Assembly (NCBI GenBank): GCA_963844035.1
Contig: CAWJMT010000005.1
Coordinates: 128,001 to 192,000 of the forward strand
Source: an uncultured Gemmatimonadales bacterium
GTDB lineage: Bacteria > Gemmatimonadota > Gemmatimonadetes > Gemmatimonadales > GWC2-71-9
Length of the DNA stretch: 64,000 nt
Reading direction: 5' to 3'
Shown here piece after piece: positions 2,013-11,551 of this stretch (position 1 is its first letter; each line of letters opens with the position of its first letter). The notes beneath the pieces were generated by a model. It saw only the letters and a list, made by a program, of their open reading frames with translations, was not told where the DNA came from and did not search any database. The position numbers and the translations under genes are program-made.

Positions 2013-3582
2013 GCGCGCGGGCCGGCGTCCCGCACGGCTGCCGGCGCCGCGATGTGCTCGAAGTTCTCCCGGAACAGGTGCGCCACGCGCGCCGCCTGCG
2101 CGTCGTAGGCCGCAGGGTCCGTCCACGTGCGCCGCGGATCCAGCATCTCGGCGGGCACCCCCGGGACCGCGCGTGGGATCGCGAGCCCAAAGACGGGCTC
2201 CGGCACCGTCGGCGTGCCTTCGAGCGCTCCCGACACGGCGGCGCGCACGATGGCGCGGGTCAGCTCGAGCGGAATGCGCTTACCCACACCGTAGGGACCG
2301 CCGGTCCAGCCGGTGTTCACGAGCCAGATCGCTCACGCCGTGCCGGGCGACCTTGTCGCCCAGCATGTTCGCGTACACCATCGCGTCGAGCGGCAGAAAC
2401 GGGGCGCCAAAGCAGGTGGAGAACGTGGCGGCCGGCTCGGTCACGCCCGCGCTCGGTCCCCGCGATCTTGGCCGTGTACCCGGACAGGAAGTGGTACAGG
2501 GTCTGATCGCTCGACAGGCGCGCGACGGGCGGCATGACACCGTACGCGTCGCACGTCAGGAACACGATCGGAGGACGGGTGACCGGCCATGCCGCTCGCC
2601 ACATGGTTCGGGACCACGTCGAGCGGGTACGCACGCGCGCGTGTTCTCCGTGATGGCGGCGGAGTCGAAGTCCACCGCGCCGGTCGCGGGATCCACGACG
2701 ACGTTCTCGAGCACGGTCCCGAAGATCCTGGCGGCCGCGTAGATCGTGGGCTCGCGCGTGGGCGAGAGCCCGATCGCCTTGGCGTAGCAGCCGCCCTCGA
2801 AATTGAACACGCCCTGGTCGCTCCAGCCGTGCTCGTCATCGCCGATCAGGGCACGCTCCGGATCGGTGGAGAGCGTGGTCTTGCCGGTTCCGGAGAGTCC
2901 GAAGAACAGCGCCACGTCCCCTCCGGTCCCGCGCGTGGCCGCGCAGTGCATCGGCAGCACGCCGTGGGCTGGGAGCAGGTAGTTGAGTGTCGTGAACACC
3001 GCCTTCTTCAATTCCCCCGCGTAGCGGGTTCCGCCGATCAGGATCGTGTGCGCGGCGAAGTGGATGACCACAAAGGTGCCGGACCTGGTGCCGTGCCGCG
3101 CTGGATCGGCCTGCAGCTCCGGCGCGTGAAGAATGTGCCACTCAGGCGTGAACGTCGGGAGGTCGGCGGCAGCCGGGCGGCGCAACATGTTGGACACGAA
3201 CAGCGCGTGCCAGGCGTTCGGGGTCACGAGCCGAATCGCGGTGCGGTACCGCGGGTCCACGCCGGCGAATACGTCGAGCACGAACAGCTCCTGTCCGTTC
3301 AGGTGCCGCACCACGTGCTCGCGCAGCCGCGCGAAGTGGTCCGGGCGCCATCGGCTGATTCACCGGACTCCAGTGCACGCGCTCGTTCGACTCGGGGTCG
3401 CGCACGATGAACTTGTCGCCGGGGCTGCGGCCGGTGTGAGGCGCGGTCACGACGCAGAGGGCTCCGTCCTCCGCAACCACGCCCTCGCCGCGACGCACCG
3501 CGTGAGCGTGCAGCTCGGCGGCCGCTTCGTTCCAGTGAAGCGCCCCCCGGGGTGCGAGTCCGGCGTCGAGGAGCGACGTCAT
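2009..3582 (-). CDS. pckA: Phosphoenolpyruvate carboxykinase (ATP); several apparent frameshifts
   Basis: [62 protein letters not shown] across consecutive frames. Confidence 0.92.
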
Positions 3583-4239
3583 TGTGGCGGCGGCGCCACT
3601 GTTGCGGCGGTGTGATAGAGGACTTCCACGGTGCGGCGGTCGGCGCTGCTCGGGGCGTAGACCGTCGGCGTCTGGTTCATGATGTCGAGCGGGGCCGGGC
3701 TGTGCTTGAGCAACCCGAGTGCATGGCCAAGCTCGTGCACCGCCACGCGTTGCAGGCAGGCGGCGACCTGGGCCGGGGTATAGCCCGCGAGCGTGCCCAG
3801 GGTCACCCGGACCGCCCGTCCGGGGCGCCGAACCGCTCACCCACGACGGGTAGTCGGTTGGCCCGGCGCAGGCCGTGACCGGCGGACCGGGATCGGGCGG
3901 CACGTCTGGAGGGACCCACTCGCCCACTGCACGATCACGTCCGCCTGGCTCGAGTCGGTACACCGCCACTCCGCCGCAACTCGCCGTACAGGAACTGTGC
4001 CTCCCACGCCTCAATACCCAGCGTCACGAGCGATGGGCATCGCGCCCTCGCGGGTCGGCGTAGAAGCGCACGGGCAGCGCCGTGGCGGGCCAGTGGAACA
4101 CGAGGATGTCGGGCGGGACGGTGTCGGCAAAGTCGTAGGTGCATCCCGGACAATCGCGCACCGGGGTGGACGGGCTCGCAGCGGCCGCGACCACGGCGGC
4201 GCCGAGCAGGATCGCGGCTACGCGGCACGCCCGGGTCAT
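3579..4239 (-). CDS. Secreted matrixin-family zinc metalloprotease; frameshifted
   Basis: N-terminal hydrophobic signal (ORF 4024..4239); HELGHALGLLKHS zinc motif and Met-turn (DIM) in ORF 3579..3806. Confidence 0.75.
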
Positions 4240-4860
4240 TGGCCCGCGCGTCCGTGCGCGCGCACGGTGAGCGCCACGCGGTGGACGGTCTGAGAGGACG
4301 TCGAATCCCTCGTCGCGCAGGGCGGGCGTCGTGAAGCCATGGATGTCGTAGCGGAGCTTCGACGGCGCATCCGAACCGCCTGCCGACCGGCAGCGTGTGG
4401 GCGAGTGCGAGCGTTCCGAGGCCCGCGAGGATCCGCTTCCCAGGCGGAACAGGCCGGTCTCCTCGGCCGGGAAGTACTTGATCCCGCCGACGCCGATCCA
4501 GGTGGAGAAGCCCCGCGGGCAGCGCGCGCTCCAGGCCGACGGTGAATGCCGCGGTGCTCACCCGGCCGAGTGCGACGCTCGAGCCGTCGGCCTCATGCCG
4601 CTGGAGCTCGCCACTCGAAAAATCGACGGCGACACGCGCGGCCCAACTGCTGTCGAGCGGCACGACCAGCGCGACTGCGACGACGGGGGCGAGGGCGGGG
4701 CGTACGTCGAACGGCGTCACGATCGAATCGTGCACCAAGCGCGGTGCTGTAGCGCGCACCGGCGGAGATCTCCACCATCAAGTTGGCCGGTCCCCGGCCT
4801 CGGCGCGAACGCGCAGAGCGCCGCGACGAGCAGGACCACCGCGTTCCTGCGGCGTAACAA
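4236..4860 (-). CDS. Hypothetical secreted/outer-membrane beta-barrel-like protein; frameshifted
   Basis: Signal-like N-terminus followed by amphipathic beta segments (ISAGARYST, ARVAVDFS, AFTVGLER); fills the operon gap. Confidence 0.5.
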
Positions 4861-4864
4861 TCCT

Positions 4865-5699
4865 CTACGTCCTCCTCACGACCACGAATCCGCTCACGAC
4901 GGCCAGCAGCAACCCGCACGCACACACGATCGCCGCGCCCGTCGGCAAATCTAGCCGGTACGACGCCCACAGTCCCAGCAAGCTCGCGGCCGTCGCGATC
5001 CCGAACCCGATCAGCAGCCGTCCCATCCACCGTTGCGCCAGCATGACCCCGCACACGGCGGGCACGATCAGGTACGCAAACGTGAGCAGGACGCCCGCGA
5101 TCGCGCACGAAACTCACGACCACCAGCGCAAACGCGGCGTAGAACAGGAAGTCCCACAGCCGCACGTGCAGCCCTTGCTGGTACGCCTGCTGGTGGTCGG
5201 ACGAAATCAGGGCGAAGCGGCGGTGGAAGGCGCCGAAGAACGCGGCCAGCACCGCGAAGAGGGCGGCACGCTGGCCGACTTCGGCGCCGGTCACGTTGAG
5301 AATATCGCCGGTCAGGAGGTGCTCGAGCTCCTCCTTGCCCCCGGCGACCCGGCTCAGCAGCAGGATCACCCCGGCGGCGGCGACCACGAACGTGATGCCG
5401 ATGATCGCCTCCTGCGGGACCTGGTGCTTCTCGCTGCTCCGGGACCAGCTGAAGAGCGCCGCCGCGGCAAACGTCACGCCGAGCGAAATCCAGAACGTGA
5501 TGCGATCATCGAAGTGGTACCCCAGGATCAGCGCGACGCAGGTACCCAGCGTGGCCACCTGGGCGAGCGCGAGGTCCACAAAGATCACTTCGCGCTTCAC
5601 CACGTGCAGGCCGAGATAGACCAGCAGGGGCGGCAGGATCAGGCACGCCGCCAACGGCCACTTCATCACCGCCCAGACGACTTGGAAGTCCACGGGCAT
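4865..5699 (-). CDS. Metal (Mn/Zn) ABC transporter permease, ABC-3 family; one frameshift
   Basis: LGLHVVKREVIFVDLALAQ, EAIIG, LLTGDIL, DLPTGAAIV. Confidence 0.85.
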
Positions 5700-6628
5700 C
5701 ACTTGGTCCCTCCCAGGGCGGCCGCCAGGGTGCGCACGATGTAGTCCATCAGGTCGAAGTAGGTCTCGGTGCCCGGGATGGCGCCGGGCTGCTGCGGAAT
5801 GTCCAGGACCTGCGCGTCGGTCTGCCGCGCCACCGTTTCCGCGGTCTTGCGATTCTGGAATGGTTGCACGAGGATCACCCGCGCCTTTTCGGCCTTCATC
5901 TTCGCGATCACCTTCGCCAGATGCGGCGGGCGACGGCGCGATGCCCGGCTTTGGCTCGAGCGTCTCGACGATCTCCAGGTTGAACCGCTCCGCGAGGTAG
6001 ACGAAGTCCTTGTGGTAGGTGACGATCTTCGCCCCACGATACGGAGCCAGCTGCTTTTGCCAGTCCGCGAGCTTCGCGTCGAGCGTCGCGTTGAACGTCT
6101 GGAGGTTGGCCTTGAACAAGCTCGGCGTCTGCCGGATCCACCTGGGCAAGGTGGTCGGCAATCTGGCGGACGATCAGCTTGACGTTGACCGGGTCGATCA
6201 GGAAGTGCGGATTGCCGAGCGCGTGCACGTCGCCCATGGAGCGGTCCAGCGTGCTTGGCACTTCGAGCAACGTCACTCCTTGGGACGCGGAGATCCGTCC
6301 CGGCGCGCCGGCGGCGATCTTGTCGTTGCGCGCGCTCTCGAGCAGCGGCGGCAGCCAGCCGATCTCGAGCTCCGCGCCGCCCTCGATCAGCACATCGGCG
6401 CGGTTCAGCGTCACGATGTGGCTGGGCTTGGCGTCCACGAAATGCGGATCTTCGGTGGGTTTGGCGAGCGCTTTGACGTCGACGGCACTCCCGCCGATGG
6501 CGCGGGCCAGCGCGGCCAGGTCGGGCGTCGTGGCGACCACGTTGAGTTGGCGCGCGGGGGGCGTACTCGCACCCAGCGATGCCATCAGCGAGACGGCCGT
6601 GCAGGTCCGCAGGATCCATGATGGTCAT
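5699..6628 (-). CDS. Metal ABC transporter substrate-binding protein (ZnuA/TroA type); frameshifted
   Basis: VVATTPDL, EDPHFVDAKPS, GDVHALGNPHF, TYHKDFVY, EPKPGIAP. Confidence 0.88.
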   Translation of the reverse strand: MTIMDPADLHGRLADGIAGCEYAPRAPTQRGRHDARPGRAGPRHRRECRRRQSARQTHRRSAFRGRQAQPHRDAEPRRCADRGRRGARDRLAAAAARERAQRQDRRRRAGTDLRVPRSDVARSAKHAGPLHGRRARARQSALPDRPGQRQADRPPDCRPPCPGGSGRRRACSRPTSRRSTRRSTRSSRTGKSSWLRIVGRRSSPTTRTSSTSRSGSTWRSSRRSSQSRASRRRPPHLAKVIAKMKAEKARVILVQPFQNRKTAETVARQTDAQVLDIPQQPGAIPGTETYFDLMDYIVRTLAAALGGTK

Positions 6629-6643
6629 GGGAGGTTCTCGCCT

Positions 6644-7855
6644 CTAGAACTTGTGAGCGGCGTGTGCGCCGAGGAGGAACTCGATTTGCAGCCAGACCGA
6701 GTGGTCGACGCCGAGTCCCTCGCGATGGTCGAGGTTGTACTGCAGCCGCACTTTCGAGAACTCGCTCGGATACCAGGTCACGTTGGGCGACACGCGATAG
6801 CGGTCGGCGCGCAGCTCCGAGTCGAAAGAGGCGGTGTCGCCGCCCGCGAACTCCCCCCGCAGACCCTGCCACGAGCAGCGGCTTGATTCCCCACAGGACC
6901 TGCGCGTATGCACCGCCGTCACGCAGCGTCTCCTCGGGCAGCGTGACGATGGGATCGGCGGCCGACGGGCGCTGCTGCCGCGTCATAGCGGCGCGTGAGC
7001 GCCTCGGCTTGAAATGAGACGAAGGGGAATCCCTGATGCGCTTTCAGGGACTTCCATTTCCAGTACAGGTCGGCGCCGTACACCTGCGTTCCGGCATCGG
7101 GCCCGGAGTTGTTGGGGCCGAACGCTCCGGAGACTCCCATCACCAGGGTCTGCGTGGCGGTCACATCGAACGAGGTCGCGAGGCGCGGGACGATCAGCAG
7201 GTCGCCCACCGAGCGTACCGCGCGCTCGATCGGCTCACCGCCGTGGATCTCCTCCGATTCGTCCGACCGAAAGCTGTACGCCGTTCCGCCGGCGCTGTTG
7301 AACACGCCGACCATCGCCTCGGCGTACCACGGGGTGGGCGCGAGCCAGGACACCCGCATCCCTGGCTGCGCAGTCCCTCGGGGCCGAACATGCGATTGAG
7401 GACGAGCGGCTGGTCTGCAAACGCCCAGGCGTGGGGGTGCTGGGCGTTCTGGCGGCCGAACTCCGCAAAGAATTGGCCGCCCTTGAGCTGCAGGTTCGCC
7501 GGGGAGCGAGGTGGTCAGGAAATACATCTCTTCCAGCTCGACACCCGTTTCCCCTTTGTCATCCAGCTTGTAGACGATGTTGGCGAATCCCTTGAAGTGG
7601 GAGTCGACGGTACCGTCGAGCGCGAGCTCGCCGTTGGGGATCGAAAAGCCGCGCACCTTTGGGTCGTGGTCGCCGAGCTGCAGCGAGCCCACATCGGGCT
7701 CGGTCGACCAGCCGACGTCCGCCAGCCCGACGAAGCTGAGGTTCATGTAGGACCCGGCAGCACGGCCCGGAGCGGTGCGGCTGCTGCGCGACGGCCGCAC
7801 CCGCAGCACACAAGGCTACTGCCACCAGGATGGCGACGTAGGAAACGGGAGACAT
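6644..7855 (-). CDS. Outer-membrane metal receptor/porin-like beta-barrel; frameshifted
   Basis: Signal peptide, His-containing motifs (GDHDP, QHPHAW), C-terminus YPSEFSKVRLQY...LGAHAAHKF; lies upstream of the metal ABC genes. Confidence 0.7.
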
Positions 7856-7926
7856 GTCATCTCTCCTGTGTTCGCGATGTATGAGCATCCGCCCCCGCTC
7901 GTTCCGAGCAGCGGTGGCGCGCGATG

Positions 7927-7950
7927 TCGGGACCCCGCGCGGGGCCCCGA
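7927..7950 (-). promoter_or_regulatory. GC-rich stem-loop between the RAPP leader ORF and the receptor gene
   Basis: tcgggacccc-gcgc-ggggccccga inverted repeat; the single irregular pair is G-U on the minus-strand transcript. Confidence 0.55.
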
Positions 7951-7956
7951 GGTTGA

Positions 7957-8288
7957 CTAGGAGAGGTGGAGCGGTGGGGCGCGGGGCTGGGAGGCGACGT
8001 AGGTCGCGCTGCCCATCCCAACGTGTTGCAGCCAGCGGCGCGGGGTGCGCCGGGACCGATGCCCGCAGGGCGACCTTCAAAGGCCGGCGGGGGCGCCGTG
8101 AGCGAGTTGGCGTAGAGACACAGCGCGCAGCGCATCGCGTCGTGGATGACGACGCAGCTCGCATCGTGGTGCGCTTCGATGGTCGTCGGCGCGGTCTCGC
8201 GCTCTCCGGCGTGCGCCAACGGCACCGCCCCGCCCGCTACGAGCTGCAGCAACAGCAGCAGGGCGGAGATGGGAGTCCGGATTGGCAT
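7957..8288 (-). CDS. DUF2946-like leader protein (signal peptide, CxxC, C-terminal RAPP); reconstructed across frameshifts
   Basis: MPIRTPISALLLLLQLVAGGAVPLAHA...HHDASCVVIHDAMRCALC; an alternate frame ends SATYVASQPRAPPLHLS-TAG at 7957. Confidence 0.7.
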
Positions 8289-8320
8289 CAGTCGATCATT
8301 GCTCTTGACGGTCGTCCTTG

Positions 8321-9205
8321 TCAACGGGCGTTCACGCGCGCCGGGCGCGCGTAGGCACGCAGTCTCCTGAGCATGCGCCGGTCATGCCGCACCGGATCGT
8401 CCGCCTTCGGGGTCTCGATGATCTTGATGACCGAGGCGAGCCGGGGGTCGCGCATGATGCGGCGAAATGCCGCCGCGCCGATTTGCCCCTCGGCGATCCA
8501 CTCATGCCGGTCGAGGTGCGACCCCGGAGCCGCCTTGGAATCGTTCAAATGGAGACACTTGAGATGCGACAGGCCGATCTCGCGGTCGACCCGATCCCAC
8601 ACCCCCTCGACATCACCGGCCACATCATACCCCGCGGCGTGCAGATGAGCCGTGTCGAGGCAGAACCCCACGCGTGCGCGTACCGCGGCGGGCAGGGCAT
8701 CGCGCAGTGCCCGCAGCTCCTCGAACGTCGCTCCCAGGGCGGTCCCGGCGCCGGCCGTACCTTCGATCAGCACACCGACGTCGCCGGGCACGGCCGCGAG
8801 GCAGGCCGCGTATTCCCGCGCGTTCCGATCCAATCCCGCCGCGCGCTCGTCCATGAAGTTGCCGGGATGCGATACCACCCAGGGGATGCCGAGCGCCAGG
8901 CACCGGCTCAGCTCGCCGACGAAACATTGGGCGCTGCGCGCGCGCAGCACGGGGTCGGGCGAGGCGAGGTTGATCAGATAGCTGTCGTGCGACACGACGG
9001 CGTGCACGCCGCTCCGGGCGAGCGCCGCGCGGTACTCGGCGACGTGCGCCGCCGTGAGCGTCGGCTCGCGCCACTGGTTGGGTGTCTTGGTGAAGATCTG
9101 CATCGCGGTCGCGCCGATCGCCGCTGCGCGAGGAGGGGCGGTGGCCACGCCCCCCATGGTCGATACATGTGCACCGAGCAGGTCGGCGTGGCGCCGCCGG
9201 GTCAT
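8321..9205 (-). CDS. nfo: Endonuclease IV
   Basis: LGAHVS, QIFTK, HDSYLINLAS, HPG, CLDTAH, HLNDSK, DRHEWI, IETP. Confidence 0.95.
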   Translation of the reverse strand: MTRRRHADLLGAHVSTMGGVATAPPRAAAIGATAMQIFTKTPNQWREPTLTAAHVAEYRAALARSGVHAVVSHDSYLINLASPDPVLRARSAQCFVGELSRCLALGIPWVVSHPGNFMDERAAGLDRNAREYAACLAAVPGDVGVLIEGTAGAGTALGATFEELRALRDALPAAVRARVGFCLDTAHLHAAGYDVAGDVEGVWDRVDREIGLSHLKCLHLNDSKAAPGSHLDRHEWIAEGQIGAAAFRRIMRDPRLASVIKIIETPKADDPVRHDRRMLRRLRAYARPARVNAR

Positions 9206-9870
9206 TCTTGCTCGACGAATGCGTGGCGCGAGATGAGGGGCACGAACCGCACGCTCCCGGCGCTCCGCTCCTGCACCCCCTCGACGGTGCGGCGGTAGAC
9301 CACCAGGTCCTGCGCGCGGCGATCGCCGATCGGAATGACCATCCTGCCGCCGATGGCGAGCTGCTCCAGGAGCGGCGCCGGGGTTGCGGGTGCGGCGGCG
9401 GTGACGACGATGACGTCGAACGGTCCGGCATCCGGCCACCCGTGCGCGCCGTCCCCCAGCCGGGTCTCAATGTTGGTCAGTCCCAGCCGACGGAACCGCT
9501 CCTCGGCCTCCACCAGGAGGTCCGGGAGCCGCTCGATCGTGTACACGCGCCCCCCGGACGCCAGGCGGGCGAGAATGGCGGTCTGGTATCCCGTGCCGGT
9601 GCCGATCTCGAGGACGCGGTCGCGGCGTCGCGGGGCGACCCACGCGGTCATCAAGCCGACGATGTACGGTTGCGAGATCGTCTGCCCGCTCCCGATCGGG
9701 AGCGGGGTATCGGCGTACGCCTCGTGCTGCAAGTACGGGGGGAGGAACCACTCGCGCGGCACACGGGCCATGACGGCGAGTACGCGCCGGTTGCGAATTC
9801 TGCGCTTTGCGAGTTGCGTCACCACCATACGGCGGCGGTGCGCCCGTGTTTCCGGTGCGTGCACGCCCAT
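9202..9870 (-). CDS. pcm: Protein-L-isoaspartate O-methyltransferase
   Basis: AYADTPLPIGSGQTISQPY, VLEIGTGTGYQ, PFDVIVVTAA, VRFVPL. Confidence 0.95.
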   Translation of the reverse strand: MGVHAPETRAHRRRMVVTQLAKRRIRNRRVLAVMARVPREWFLPPYLQHEAYADTPLPIGSGQTISQPYIVGLMTAWVAPRRRDRVLEIGTGTGYQTAILARLASGGRVYTIERLPDLLVEAEERFRRLGLTNIETRLGDGAHGWPDAGPFDVIVVTAAAPATPAPLLEQLAIGGRMVIPIGDRRAQDLVVYRRTVEGVQERSAGSVRFVPLISRHAFVEQE

Positions 9871-10384: not shown

Positions 10385-11498
10385 CTAATCCAGCGTCTTA
10401 TGGAACCGTCGCACCGCCACCACAATGAGCAGCCCCGCGAACGCGCCGAGTATCCCCACCTCCCGCCACAACGCATCGAGCCCCACCCCCTTTAAGAGGA
10501 TGCCACGCAACACCGTCAGGAAATGGGTCAGCGGGAGCATGAACCCCACCCACTGAAACAGCGACGGCATCGCCTGCCGCGGGAACATGAAGCCTGAGAG
10601 CAGGATGTTCGGGCAGGACGAAGAAGAAGCTCACCTGCATGGCTTGTTGCTGGGTGCGCACCAGGGTCGAGATCACGAGCCCCAACGCGAGGCTCGCGAT
10701 AATGAACAGCAGCGCGATCGCGTACAGCAGCAGCACGTTGCCCGTGAGGGGGACGTCGAACACGTAGCGGCCGATGATCAGCACCGCGGTCATCTGGAAC
10801 AAGCCGACCCCCACATACGGGGCGATCTTGCCGAGCATCAGCTCGGTGCGGGTGATCGGTGTGACGATGAGCTGCTCCAGCGTGCCGCGCTCACGCTCGC
10901 GCACGACCGCCATGGCCGTCACGAGCACCATCGTGAGCGTGAGGATGACTCCCACCAGACCGGGGACGATGTAGTTGGGGCTGCGCAGTCCCGGGTTGTA
11001 GAGCGGGCGCACGCGGGCATCGATCGGGATGCTGGTGCGACCCGCGGCCGCGCTCAGAATCGCGAGGTTGCGGACCTGCGCCACGCCGGCCGCGGCCGCG
11101 ATCGCCGACTGCGACGATAAGGGATCGGCGGCGTCGACCACGACCTGCACGGTGGCGGCCTCGCGGCGGGCCAGCCGCCGGGGATAGTCGTAGGGGACGA
11201 TGATGCCGGCCTGAGCGTCGCCGCGCGCGATCGCCCGATCCAGCTCCGGCCGCTCGTCCACGAACCCCACAATGCGGAAGTTGCCGGTGTTCTCGAACGC
11301 CCGCACGAGATCCCGGCTCTCGGGCGTACGCGATTGGTCGAGCACCAGCGTCGGCAGGTGGCGGACGTCGGTCTGGATGGCGAAGCCGAACAGCAAGAGC
11401 TGGGCGACGGGGAGGGCGGTCATGATCATGAGCGTGAGCCGGTCCCGCCGCATCTGGATGAATTCCTTGCGGAACATCGGCCAGAAGCGGGGCATCAT
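10385..11498 (-). CDS. ABC-2 exporter permease (YbhR/YbhS-like); one frameshift
   Basis: KEFIQMRRD, YIVPGL, RERERGTLEQLIVTP, LPLTHF. Confidence 0.9.
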
Positions 11499-11551
11499 CG
11501 CTCGGGGCGTTCCAACTCTTGGTGCCATGTGCATCGGACCCGTATCCTCAT

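Follow-up and report, generated by a model that had tools for sequence, protein, structure and literature searches.

Control of metal genes by a stalling leader peptide has so far been worked out only for copper, with CruR and CutF, two leaders of the DUF2946 type. As defined by Roy et al., DUF2946 proteins combine an export signal, a CxxC motif and an RAPP motif three residues from the end, with a 45-residue spacing that is kept within one or two, and they are found mostly in Proteobacteria, where they head copper-linked operons (PMC9426467). The prototype, CruR (Bp2923) of Bordetella pertussis, requires both RAPP and CxxC for regulation, heads an importer, is switched off by its metal, copper, and acts via Rho-dependent termination (PMC9426467); its arrest has been shown in vitro, with the Pro-Pro codons in the P and A sites (PMC12992588). 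In the case of CutF of Rhodobacter capsulatus, a stalled ribosome opens a stem that shields the ribosome-binding site (RBS), and in the proposed model copper blocks disulfide formation, so that the stall is prolonged (bioRxiv 10.1101/2025.02.05.636593). Here we analyze a window of 64,000 nucleotides from an uncultured Gemmatimonadales bacterium (G000:C5:128001-192000, 68% G+C; genome G000 comprises 39 contigs and 3.47 Mb and is 84% complete), in which a small open reading frame (ORF) starting at ATG 8288 of the minus strand precedes genes for a porin-like barrel, a ZnuA-family binding protein and an ABC-3 permease. The locus represents a remote offshoot of the CruR/CutF kind that Pfam does not see; a covarying Shine-Dalgarno (SD) clamp connects it to a zinc-type importer, and its copy is broken in this assembly. 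We give about even odds (roughly 50%) to the full reading, namely that the ORF is a frame-broken copy of a conserved exported leader, that a stall at RAPP likely opens a helix over the SD of the porin/ZnuA/permease operon, and that zinc binding, as predicted, ends the stall.

Leaders with this kind of C-terminus have also been surveyed more widely. The census of Fujiwara et al. 2025 described RAPP/RGPP upstream ORFs (uORFs) before genes for TonB receptors, copper proteins and RND adaptors (620 RAPP versus 148 AAPP), as well as before 9 genes for a 'zinc-regulated ... outer membrane receptor' of ~400-500 aa, with one uORF annotated as DUF2946; proteomes show a depletion of RAPP and RGPP, and small exported uORF products an enrichment at their C-terminal ends (PMC12992588). 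What the leader described here has in common with the census, and with the Sec-monitoring arrest peptides ApdA, ApdP and SecM, is this RAPP-type arrest core at the C-terminus of a small exported uORF product. The census differs in being annotation-based, and its section 13 contains no ZnuA/ABC-3 cargo, 44-residue rule or clamp; the word 'Gemmatimonadota' is absent from the parts of its supplement that were searched, a search that covered file 8 in part and did not extend to file 10. In Caulobacter, the DUF2946 gene CC2720 precedes czrCBA, and its expression changed in a Zur-regulon data set (PMC4176598). Standing first ahead of a heavy-metal RND efflux operon, CC2720 is a counterpart to the efflux-linked leaders reported below; it belongs to another phylum and was not treated as a leader peptide in that study.

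The leader ORF begins 35 nt past the stop codon of an endonuclease IV gene. As stated in a preliminary description made from the window's letters, it carries a signal-like N-terminus followed by a cluster of His and Cys residues, both in its first frame (8084-8288, minus strand). The N-terminus, MPIRTPISALLLLLQLVAGGAVPLAHA (8208-8288), was judged to be signal-like by eye, from a basic n-region, a hydrophobic core and A-H-A, and is conserved in 6/6 close relatives. Downstream of it lies the cluster EAHHDASCVVIHDAMRCALC (codons 8168-8118; the fuller stretch reads GERETAPTTIEAHHDASCVVIHDAMRCALC), of the form H-x3-C-x3-H-x4-C-x2-C (HDASCVVIHDAMRCALC), the CxxC of which is CALC (8129-8118). Without correction the frame extends to 7857 and contains no RAPP: the peptide end QPRAPPLHLS-stop, with RAPP encoded by CGC GCC CCA CCG at 7983-7972 and the stop codon TAG at 7959-7957, is in a different frame from ATG 8288, which is why the list of ORFs misses it.

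The net two-base correction that had been proposed to join both parts is borne out by comparison. In contigs of a relative (runs X1, X2 and X4) one base is missing at 8083 and another at 8025, positions that both fall within the leader, so that the window's second frame (8026-8082, past the extra base near 8083) and third frame (7960-8024, past the extra base near 8025 and ending in QPRAPPLHLS) continue the first one. A large protein search rendered an intact ortholog of 116 aa, P0089, from a 1688-nt contig (the same length as the relative's record), which reads through to RAPPLHLS-stop with a CxxC-to-RAPP spacing of 44. It maps onto the three frames of the window in turn, with residues 1 to ~74 on 8288 to ~8083, LKVALRASVPAHPAPLAA in the second frame and (N/H)VGMGSATYVASQPRAPPLHLS on 8025-7960, and on this ground we take the correction to be right. 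It rests on a relative of ~94% identity, found among the contigs of four runs labelled soil metagenome, and not on the strain's own reads: among public sequencing runs none held more than 0.16 of the sampled words of 7000-9000, and no run of this strain was found.

The same relative indicates how general the breaks are. Its 1688-nt record (X1, X2) spans 7402-8654 with 79 other letters, and with respect to it the window has one additional base each at 7941 and 7906 and one base fewer behind 7883 in the spacer that follows the leader, one additional base each at 7777 and 7498 in the next gene, and 21 bases fewer behind 8273/8274. This last difference, in frame unlike the single-base ones, gives the relative seven more residues (RRPRATT) in its signal-peptide n-region. 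On the cargo side, reading the barrel gene takes at least 3 frames, the ZnuA gene 3, the permease gene 2, a small outer-membrane protein gene 2, a zincin-like lipoprotein gene 2-3, and the PEP (phosphoenolpyruvate) carboxykinase gene (PckA) 2-3, and every gene in 2100-7860, from the barrel gene to PEP carboxykinase, is read in 2-3 frames. The upstream endonuclease IV and methyltransferase genes (8336-9783) are whole, and odd C-terminal ends also occur in the ORFs at 963-2126 and 10398-11534; single-base indels seem abundant in this assembly. The high density of the indels, together with the presence of a housekeeping gene among those broken, points to assembly error rather than decay as the source of the single-base indels, without proving it.

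The leader belongs to a family that is widespread in the phylum. Matches at E<=7e-8 were found in 7 of 41 related genomes, and six of the seven closest relatives show in frame the signal-like N-terminus, H-x3-C-x3-H-x4-C-x2-C-x-YAG, a variable stretch, and PRAPP followed by 3-4 residues and the stop codon, all six with the arrangement CxxC-44-RAPP, whereas the seventh ends in RSPPPARA (RSPP). With a profile built from the six intact relatives (A1), 77 of the 401 Gemmatimonadota genomes sampled proved to carry the family, as did 41 of the 147 genera, frequently with two copies per genome, including 4/4 genomes of genus g11, 9/9 of g30 and 10/11 of g33. The records of the relatives are metagenome-assembled genomes of Gemmatimonadales and Gemmatimonadota, with one row labelled Methylomirabilota. 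From the fetched surroundings 91 leader ORFs were extracted, stretches of 200 aa or more without a settable start (at least L117 and L119) being dropped. All 91 carry R[AGSP]PP at the C-terminal end (RAPP in 74, RGPP in 14, RSPP in 2 and RPPP in 1), and in 82 of them 2-4 residues follow it. The cluster was of the CxxC type in 62 leaders and of the CxxH type in 8, with 21 showing neither by the pattern used; for the 70 with one or the other, the spacing to the motif was 44 in 48, 42-46 in 66, and 54-55 in 4, for which the pattern may have caught an earlier Cys. The five cluster residues are all invariant in A1, and in 84 aligned leaders one His and the R, P and P of the C-terminal motif are invariant and one Glu and two Cys nearly so, C, H and C of the cluster being among these positions. 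Between the cluster and RAPP, both in A1 and in the 84 leaders, it is the length and not the sequence that is conserved.

These data bear on two simpler explanations. The ORF could be a matter of chance, or a dead remnant, with an out-of-frame RAPP that is coincidental in DNA of 68% G+C, and RAPP-like words are in fact frequent in six-frame reads of this DNA, one of them lying in the spacer. We regard this as extremely improbable, given the intact ortholog with an in-frame RAPP, the fixed spacing of 44 residues, the occurrence of the family in 77 of the 401 genomes and the intact second copy in G000; chance in particular is excluded because 6/7 of the closest relatives carry an in-frame RAPP at the same distance from CxxC, and the seventh RSPP. 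It could also be the case that the product is an ordinary small periplasmic metal-binding protein, for example a chaperone of the importer, with the RNA helix described below serving just to couple translation and RAPP causing no arrest. A mature part with a conserved metal-type cluster would suit such a protein, and the helix would be opened by any ribosome that reached the stop codon. We hold this to be very unlikely nonetheless: conservation of length alone between cluster and RAPP is odd for a folded protein, the motif is 2-4 residues from the stop codon in 82/91 leaders, and the census places RAPP/RGPP at the ends of small exported uORF products and away from proteomes at large (PMC12992588).

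The second leader of G000 is intact (G000:C12:28321-28656; L114:5495-5857, minus strand). CAFH replaces CxxC in it, the spacing is 44 and its end reads DSRAPPHLS, and a gene for a TonB-dependent receptor lies 102 nt downstream, its SD included in an 11-bp helix with the leader tail. In the window itself, a second RAPP-coding stretch, located in the spacer (CGC GCG CCA CCG, 7923-7912, minus strand), is in the same frame as the leader end and at the foot of the second of two hairpins, and G006 likewise shows a second RAPP stretch ~20 codons past its leader stop; this stretch could be due to chance, a conserved piece of RNA, or a remnant.

Existing annotation gives almost no hint of this family. 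In a collection of 5.8 billion proteins, the 120 relatives listed out of 272 are unnamed or called 'hypothetical protein' (one row is labelled otherwise) and none has a Pfam domain; a protein atlas gives the same picture, with the leader relatives unannotated, and NCBIfam names neither the leader nor the barrel. A few leaders show weak matches to DUF6153 (PF19650), which may represent a further family of leaders, built in the same way, from other phyla. The preliminary description had likened the leader to the DUF2946 type and proposed to run the corresponding profile on the corrected protein. In P0089 DUF2946 is indeed the sole Pfam match (E 5.6e-4), aligned up to the last position of the profile, at 21.1 bits against a gathering cut-off of 23.7 bits for PF11162, so that the kinship had to be drawn from a profile-profile match instead. 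PF11162 matches 15/91 leaders, all of them below the cut-off (best 22.8 bits), and a six-frame search of the same 401 genomes gave matches above it in 13 genomes, none in the window's genus, g11, g30 or g33, and no match at the window locus in G000. From the phylum's DUF2946-positive sequences we prepared an alignment of 11 (A3), 11/11 of which match PF11162 at E<=0.01 (best 2.1e-6). The hhalign comparison of A1 with A3 rendered a probability of 97.0% and an E-value of 9.4e-11 over 104 columns, from the signal peptide through RAPP. On the strength of this match, and in spite of the sub-cut-off Pfam scores, the leader clade belongs to the DUF2946 superfamily, as a distant branch outside what the Pfam model recognizes.

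The genes that follow were assigned to types with Pfam, applied to the first ORF downstream, and with local searches from typed seeds. In the window they are, all on the minus strand, a gene for a porin-like outer-membrane barrel (6647-7855), a ZnuA-family substrate-binding protein gene (5693-6546, in 3 frames, from a family search), and an ABC-3 (ZnuB-type) permease gene (4904-5678, in 2 frames, likewise). The binding protein and the permease had thus been rightly named, but the first gene, which had been described as an outer-membrane receptor, was not. It is of the G001 type, with 62-88% identity to the 454-aa protein of G001, and the barrel proteins of G002 and G006 barely match the window. 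The fold was modelled on the G002 type (26% identical, E 1e-21), and the model, with a predicted local distance difference test (pLDDT) score of 80.8, shows an N-terminal coiled coil followed by a porin-like barrel; among PDB entries OprP matches best (E 1.7e-10, template-modelling score 0.52), and general porins come next. Because its fold matches porins, the protein is not taken as a receptor; a TonB-dependent receptor was considered and rejected, since the protein has no Pfam or NCBIfam family and ~420-454 aa versus the ~700-800 aa of a receptor with Plug and TonB_dep_Rec barrel domains. Barrels with an N-terminal coiled coil (L023:2278-3540 and relatives) are very common in metagenomes and well conserved, with 2708 clusters at E<=1e-5 among 8000 candidates scored, many at ~70% identity; all of these relatives are 'hypothetical' and without family.

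Among the 91 leaders, 51 precede a family-less protein of 405-460 aa together with ZnuA and the ABC-3 permease, 29 a TonB-dependent receptor with a CarboxypepD_reg N-domain, and 8 an OEP-HlyD-RND efflux set, the remaining 3 having too little sequence. Regarding the metal, the claim that the importer is of a Zn/Mn type rather than a copper system agrees with the ZnuA/ABC-3 cargo and can be narrowed. Three His residues are invariant in 44/44 ZnuA homologs, with no Asp at the place of the fourth ligand. In this class of binding proteins three His are zinc-specific, while His2-Glu-Asp is the set for Mn/Fe, and the invariance of the three His therefore favours zinc over manganese as the probable metal. 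The best NCBIfam matches of the importer are AztC and AztB, far under the cut-offs, and the scan of cargo genes revealed no copper family; the cargo here is not the copper-homeostasis operon with which DUF2946 is usually linked. No ABC ATPase gene was found in the importer operon in the window's clade, the only place where it was searched for (window 3500-6600, L023, L024); there the permease is followed by the small outer-membrane protein and the zincin-like lipoprotein, and in distant loci such as L118 a 258-aa ORF stands between binding protein and permease. Seven loci (L062, L064, L066, L067, L069, L071 and L072) contain leader, barrel, ZnuA and permease and then, directly, a second leader of another subfamily with a TonB-dependent receptor, after which a ~550-aa gene is found where the sequence reaches.

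The RND pumps of the efflux sets are of the CusA/CzcA family (903 bits), and 5/7 carry DFG-x3-DGA-x3-VEN, which we take to be a mark of divalent-cation pumps. Genus g11 (L025, L059, L060 and L068) shows such an exchange of cargo at one locus: at the nfo-linked position, the leader is followed by OEP-HlyD-CzcA-type RND efflux genes that replace the importer, and the flanks are unchanged, with the endonuclease IV gene before and the small outer-membrane protein, the zincin-like lipoprotein and malic enzyme after, which indicates that the cargo was swapped behind a conserved leader.

The locus resembles that of CruR. Both leaders are the small first gene of a metal-uptake operon, both have an export signal (a putative one here), CxxC, and RAPP 3-4 residues before the stop codon, the CxxC-RAPP spacing is fixed in both (45 in CruR, 44 here), a long spacer precedes an outer-membrane cargo gene, and the kinship is seen at the profile level. 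In contrast to CruR, the Gemmatimonadota cluster is extended by two His and a third Cys and the sequence falls below the Pfam cut-off; where CruR is followed by a TonB receptor and a PepSY protein, the leader here precedes a porin-like barrel, ZnuA and an ABC-3 permease; the metal is likely zinc and not copper; a covarying SD clamp stands where CruR has Rho-dependent termination; and the phylum is Gemmatimonadota.

The hairpin announced in the preliminary description just past the leader stop is present: it comprises 24 nt (7950-7927, minus strand), starts 6 nt after the stop codon, and has a 10-bp stem of -21.4 kcal/mol (z -3.48; 1/200 shuffled sequences folds as well). Homologs likewise combine RAPP or RGPP with a stem-loop right after the stop codon, as had been asked of them, and in the relatives folded these stem-loops differ in sequence and begin ~1-12 nt past the stop. 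As the covarying RNA element, however, the hairpin gives way to a longer helix. An anti-SD strand (7959-7968, core CUCUCCU at 7965-7959), made up of the final codons of the leader plus the first base of its stop codon, pairs with the SD strand (7858-7869, core AGGAGAG at 7867-7861) located 5 nt before the barrel ATG at 7855; this clamp encloses the hairpin and a second, branched one (7872-7924), all on the minus strand. Both the minimum free energy (MFE) and the centroid fold contain it, in the window as well as in G002, G006 and the second copy of G000. The hairpin is thus an inner branch, and as a terminator it was discarded: it has no U-tail (CAUCGCG follows), no terminator-like site was found on the minus strand in 7700-8500, and Rfam rendered 0 matches at E<=1 in 7600-8500.

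SD and start codon could be set in 75 loci, and in 54 of them the MFE fold pairs the SD with the leader tail (37/46 in the barrel class, 14/22 in the receptor class and 3/7 in the efflux class). The helix occurs in compensating versions, such as CUCUCCUGA/UCAGGAGAG, CUCCCGUUCC/GGAACGGGAG, CCUCCUCCGAGC/GCUCGGAGGAG and CCUCUCGUAG/(C)GUUACGGGAGG. Since the register of the helix differs between groups, RNAalifold gave no consensus for 29 spacers, and energies of matched versus mismatched duplexes were used in place of a column-wise count of covariation. Leader tails pair with their own SD at a mean of -14.1 kcal/mol versus -10.9 kcal/mol with the SDs of other loci, a value reached by 0/5000 permutations (73 distinct pairs, kinship ignored); the own SD is in the best tenth of partners for 30/73 tails and is the top partner for only 4. 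The long-range helix between tail and SD is the better-supported RNA element.

A different output has to be considered here, modelled on CruR, in which the arrested ribosome would keep Rho from a C-rich loading site at the leader end, release by the metal would let Rho terminate transcription in the spacer, and the helix would be secondary. C exceeds G by 0.22-0.38 over 8010-7911 (leader end and spacer start), which resembles the bubble in the rut region of cruR (PMC9426467), and the spacers are long, 101 nt in the window and mostly 60-110 nt elsewhere. RAPP and Pro-rich codons are inherently C-rich, however, the spacer has strong secondary structure where cruR needs an unstructured rut region, and a covarying SD clamp indicates control of initiation. 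We consider this output unlikely as the principal one, although both could coexist.

Upstream of the leader, a promoter-like site, TTGACA-18-AATGAT (8295-8324, minus strand), ends 7 nt before the ATG. It comes from a pattern match alone (1 site versus 0.0 expected in shuffled sequences), includes an inverted repeat, TTGAC-N10-GTCAA, and is not conserved in relatives. No SD sequence is found ahead of ATG 8288, and the leader might be translated from a leaderless mRNA.

Under the reading that we favour, the ribosome would arrest with the first Pro codon of RAPP in the P site, as for CruR, and would sit on or against the anti-SD strand, which would free the SD and allow translation of the tightly packed cargo genes. 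The tether of 44 residues would place the exported cluster just outside the ribosomal tunnel and the Sec channel at the moment of arrest, from where folding of the cluster around a metal, probably zinc, could pull the nascent chain and end the arrest; the ribosome would then terminate, the clamp would close and uptake would be off. Engineered constructs have shown that a zinc finger can release an arrest peptide in a zinc-dependent manner. By analogy with SecM and CutF, opening of the clamp by the arrest appears the most likely logic, and an importer would sensibly use the sign of CruR, in which copper ends the arrest. With CutF the locus would share the RNA logic, in which a stall of an exported leader at a C-terminal Pro-rich motif melts a stem over the RBS of the next gene; CutF differs in having CxxxC, a PPP motif, dependence on EF-P (elongation factor P), a copper oxidase as cargo and a stall induced by the metal, the opposite of the sign expected for an importer.

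That opposite sign defines another alternative: metal, or another thiol-binding stress acting on the exported cluster, would prolong the arrest and switch the cargo on, so that one stress would induce importers, receptors and efflux pumps alike. A single sign for every cargo is simpler, in another genus very similar leaders (34-36% identity to the first A2 sequence, same clamp, spacing 44) stand before CzcA-type efflux operons at this nfo-linked locus, and the disulfide model of CutF works in this direction (bioRxiv 10.1101/2025.02.05.636593). Inducing a zinc-type importer when the metal is plentiful would nevertheless be poor physiology, and the importer-linked CruR is turned off by its metal (PMC9426467). 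We judge this alternative improbable. The position of the anti-SD strand was also tried as a determinant of import versus export and dropped, as the start positions overlap between the classes.

Several points weigh against the release of a stalled ribosome by zinc as we propose it. Arrest, metal identity and sign of response are inferred. At the level of the family, PF11162 scores stay below its cut-off, the window ORF has no Pfam family at E<=1 and the intact leaders of G002 and G016 none at E<=0.1, and the DUF2946 relatives are linked to copper. Leaders of the same design, with the same clamp, also precede CzcA-type efflux operons (8/91), for which the opposite sign would be expected, and the C-rich stretch at 8010-7911 also fits Rho-dependent control of the CruR type. 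The permutation test for tails and SDs is uncorrected for kinship. As to geometry, a ribosome holds about the next 11-15 nt single-stranded, and the anti-SD strand starts 0-12 nt past the P-site codon across loci, so that an arrested ribosome would cover it fully in some of them; in the window it begins 11 nt past that codon, and there, as in the window's group, the stalled ribosome would open the first few pairs only. When the first 22 nt were held open in the folds to represent a stalled ribosome, the SD was still paired at 3 or more bases in 56/75 loci, which is not decisive. Finally, the leader of the window and all its cargo genes are frame-broken, and if the breaks were real the locus would be dead.

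The preliminary reading is upheld in its essentials: of the checks suggested with it, all those that could be carried out agreed with it, fully or nearly. Known beforehand were the copper leaders CruR and CutF and the census of RAPP/RGPP uORFs. The preliminary description had known of no characterised example in this lineage, and our search of the literature, which did not take in the figures and part of the supplement of the census, turned up no publication dealing with leaders of this type in Gemmatimonadota or ahead of ZnuA-type importers. A wider proposal, which we put forward tentatively as less probable than not, is that Gemmatimonadota possess one family of nascent-chain metal sensors in which a zinc-knuckle-like cluster, 44 residues from RAPP, would act as a natural force sensor, the same sensor being wired by the same clamp to zinc import (porin-ZnuA-permease, TonB receptors) and to CzcCBA-type export, with the sign of the response set in the peptide and not in the RNA; if true, this would be the first zinc-responsive arrest peptide.

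Annotation misses such leaders, whose relatives appear as 'hypothetical protein' without a Pfam domain, and assemblies rich in indels hide them further. With the loci reported here, the design known from copper is now found in a little-studied soil phylum, where it heads zinc-type importers and, in sister genera, divalent-cation efflux at the same locus. It is a compact and testable system, of ~116 codons and ~100 nt of RNA, that could show how the binding of a metal outside the ribosome becomes release or persistence of an arrest, and what sets the sign of the response.

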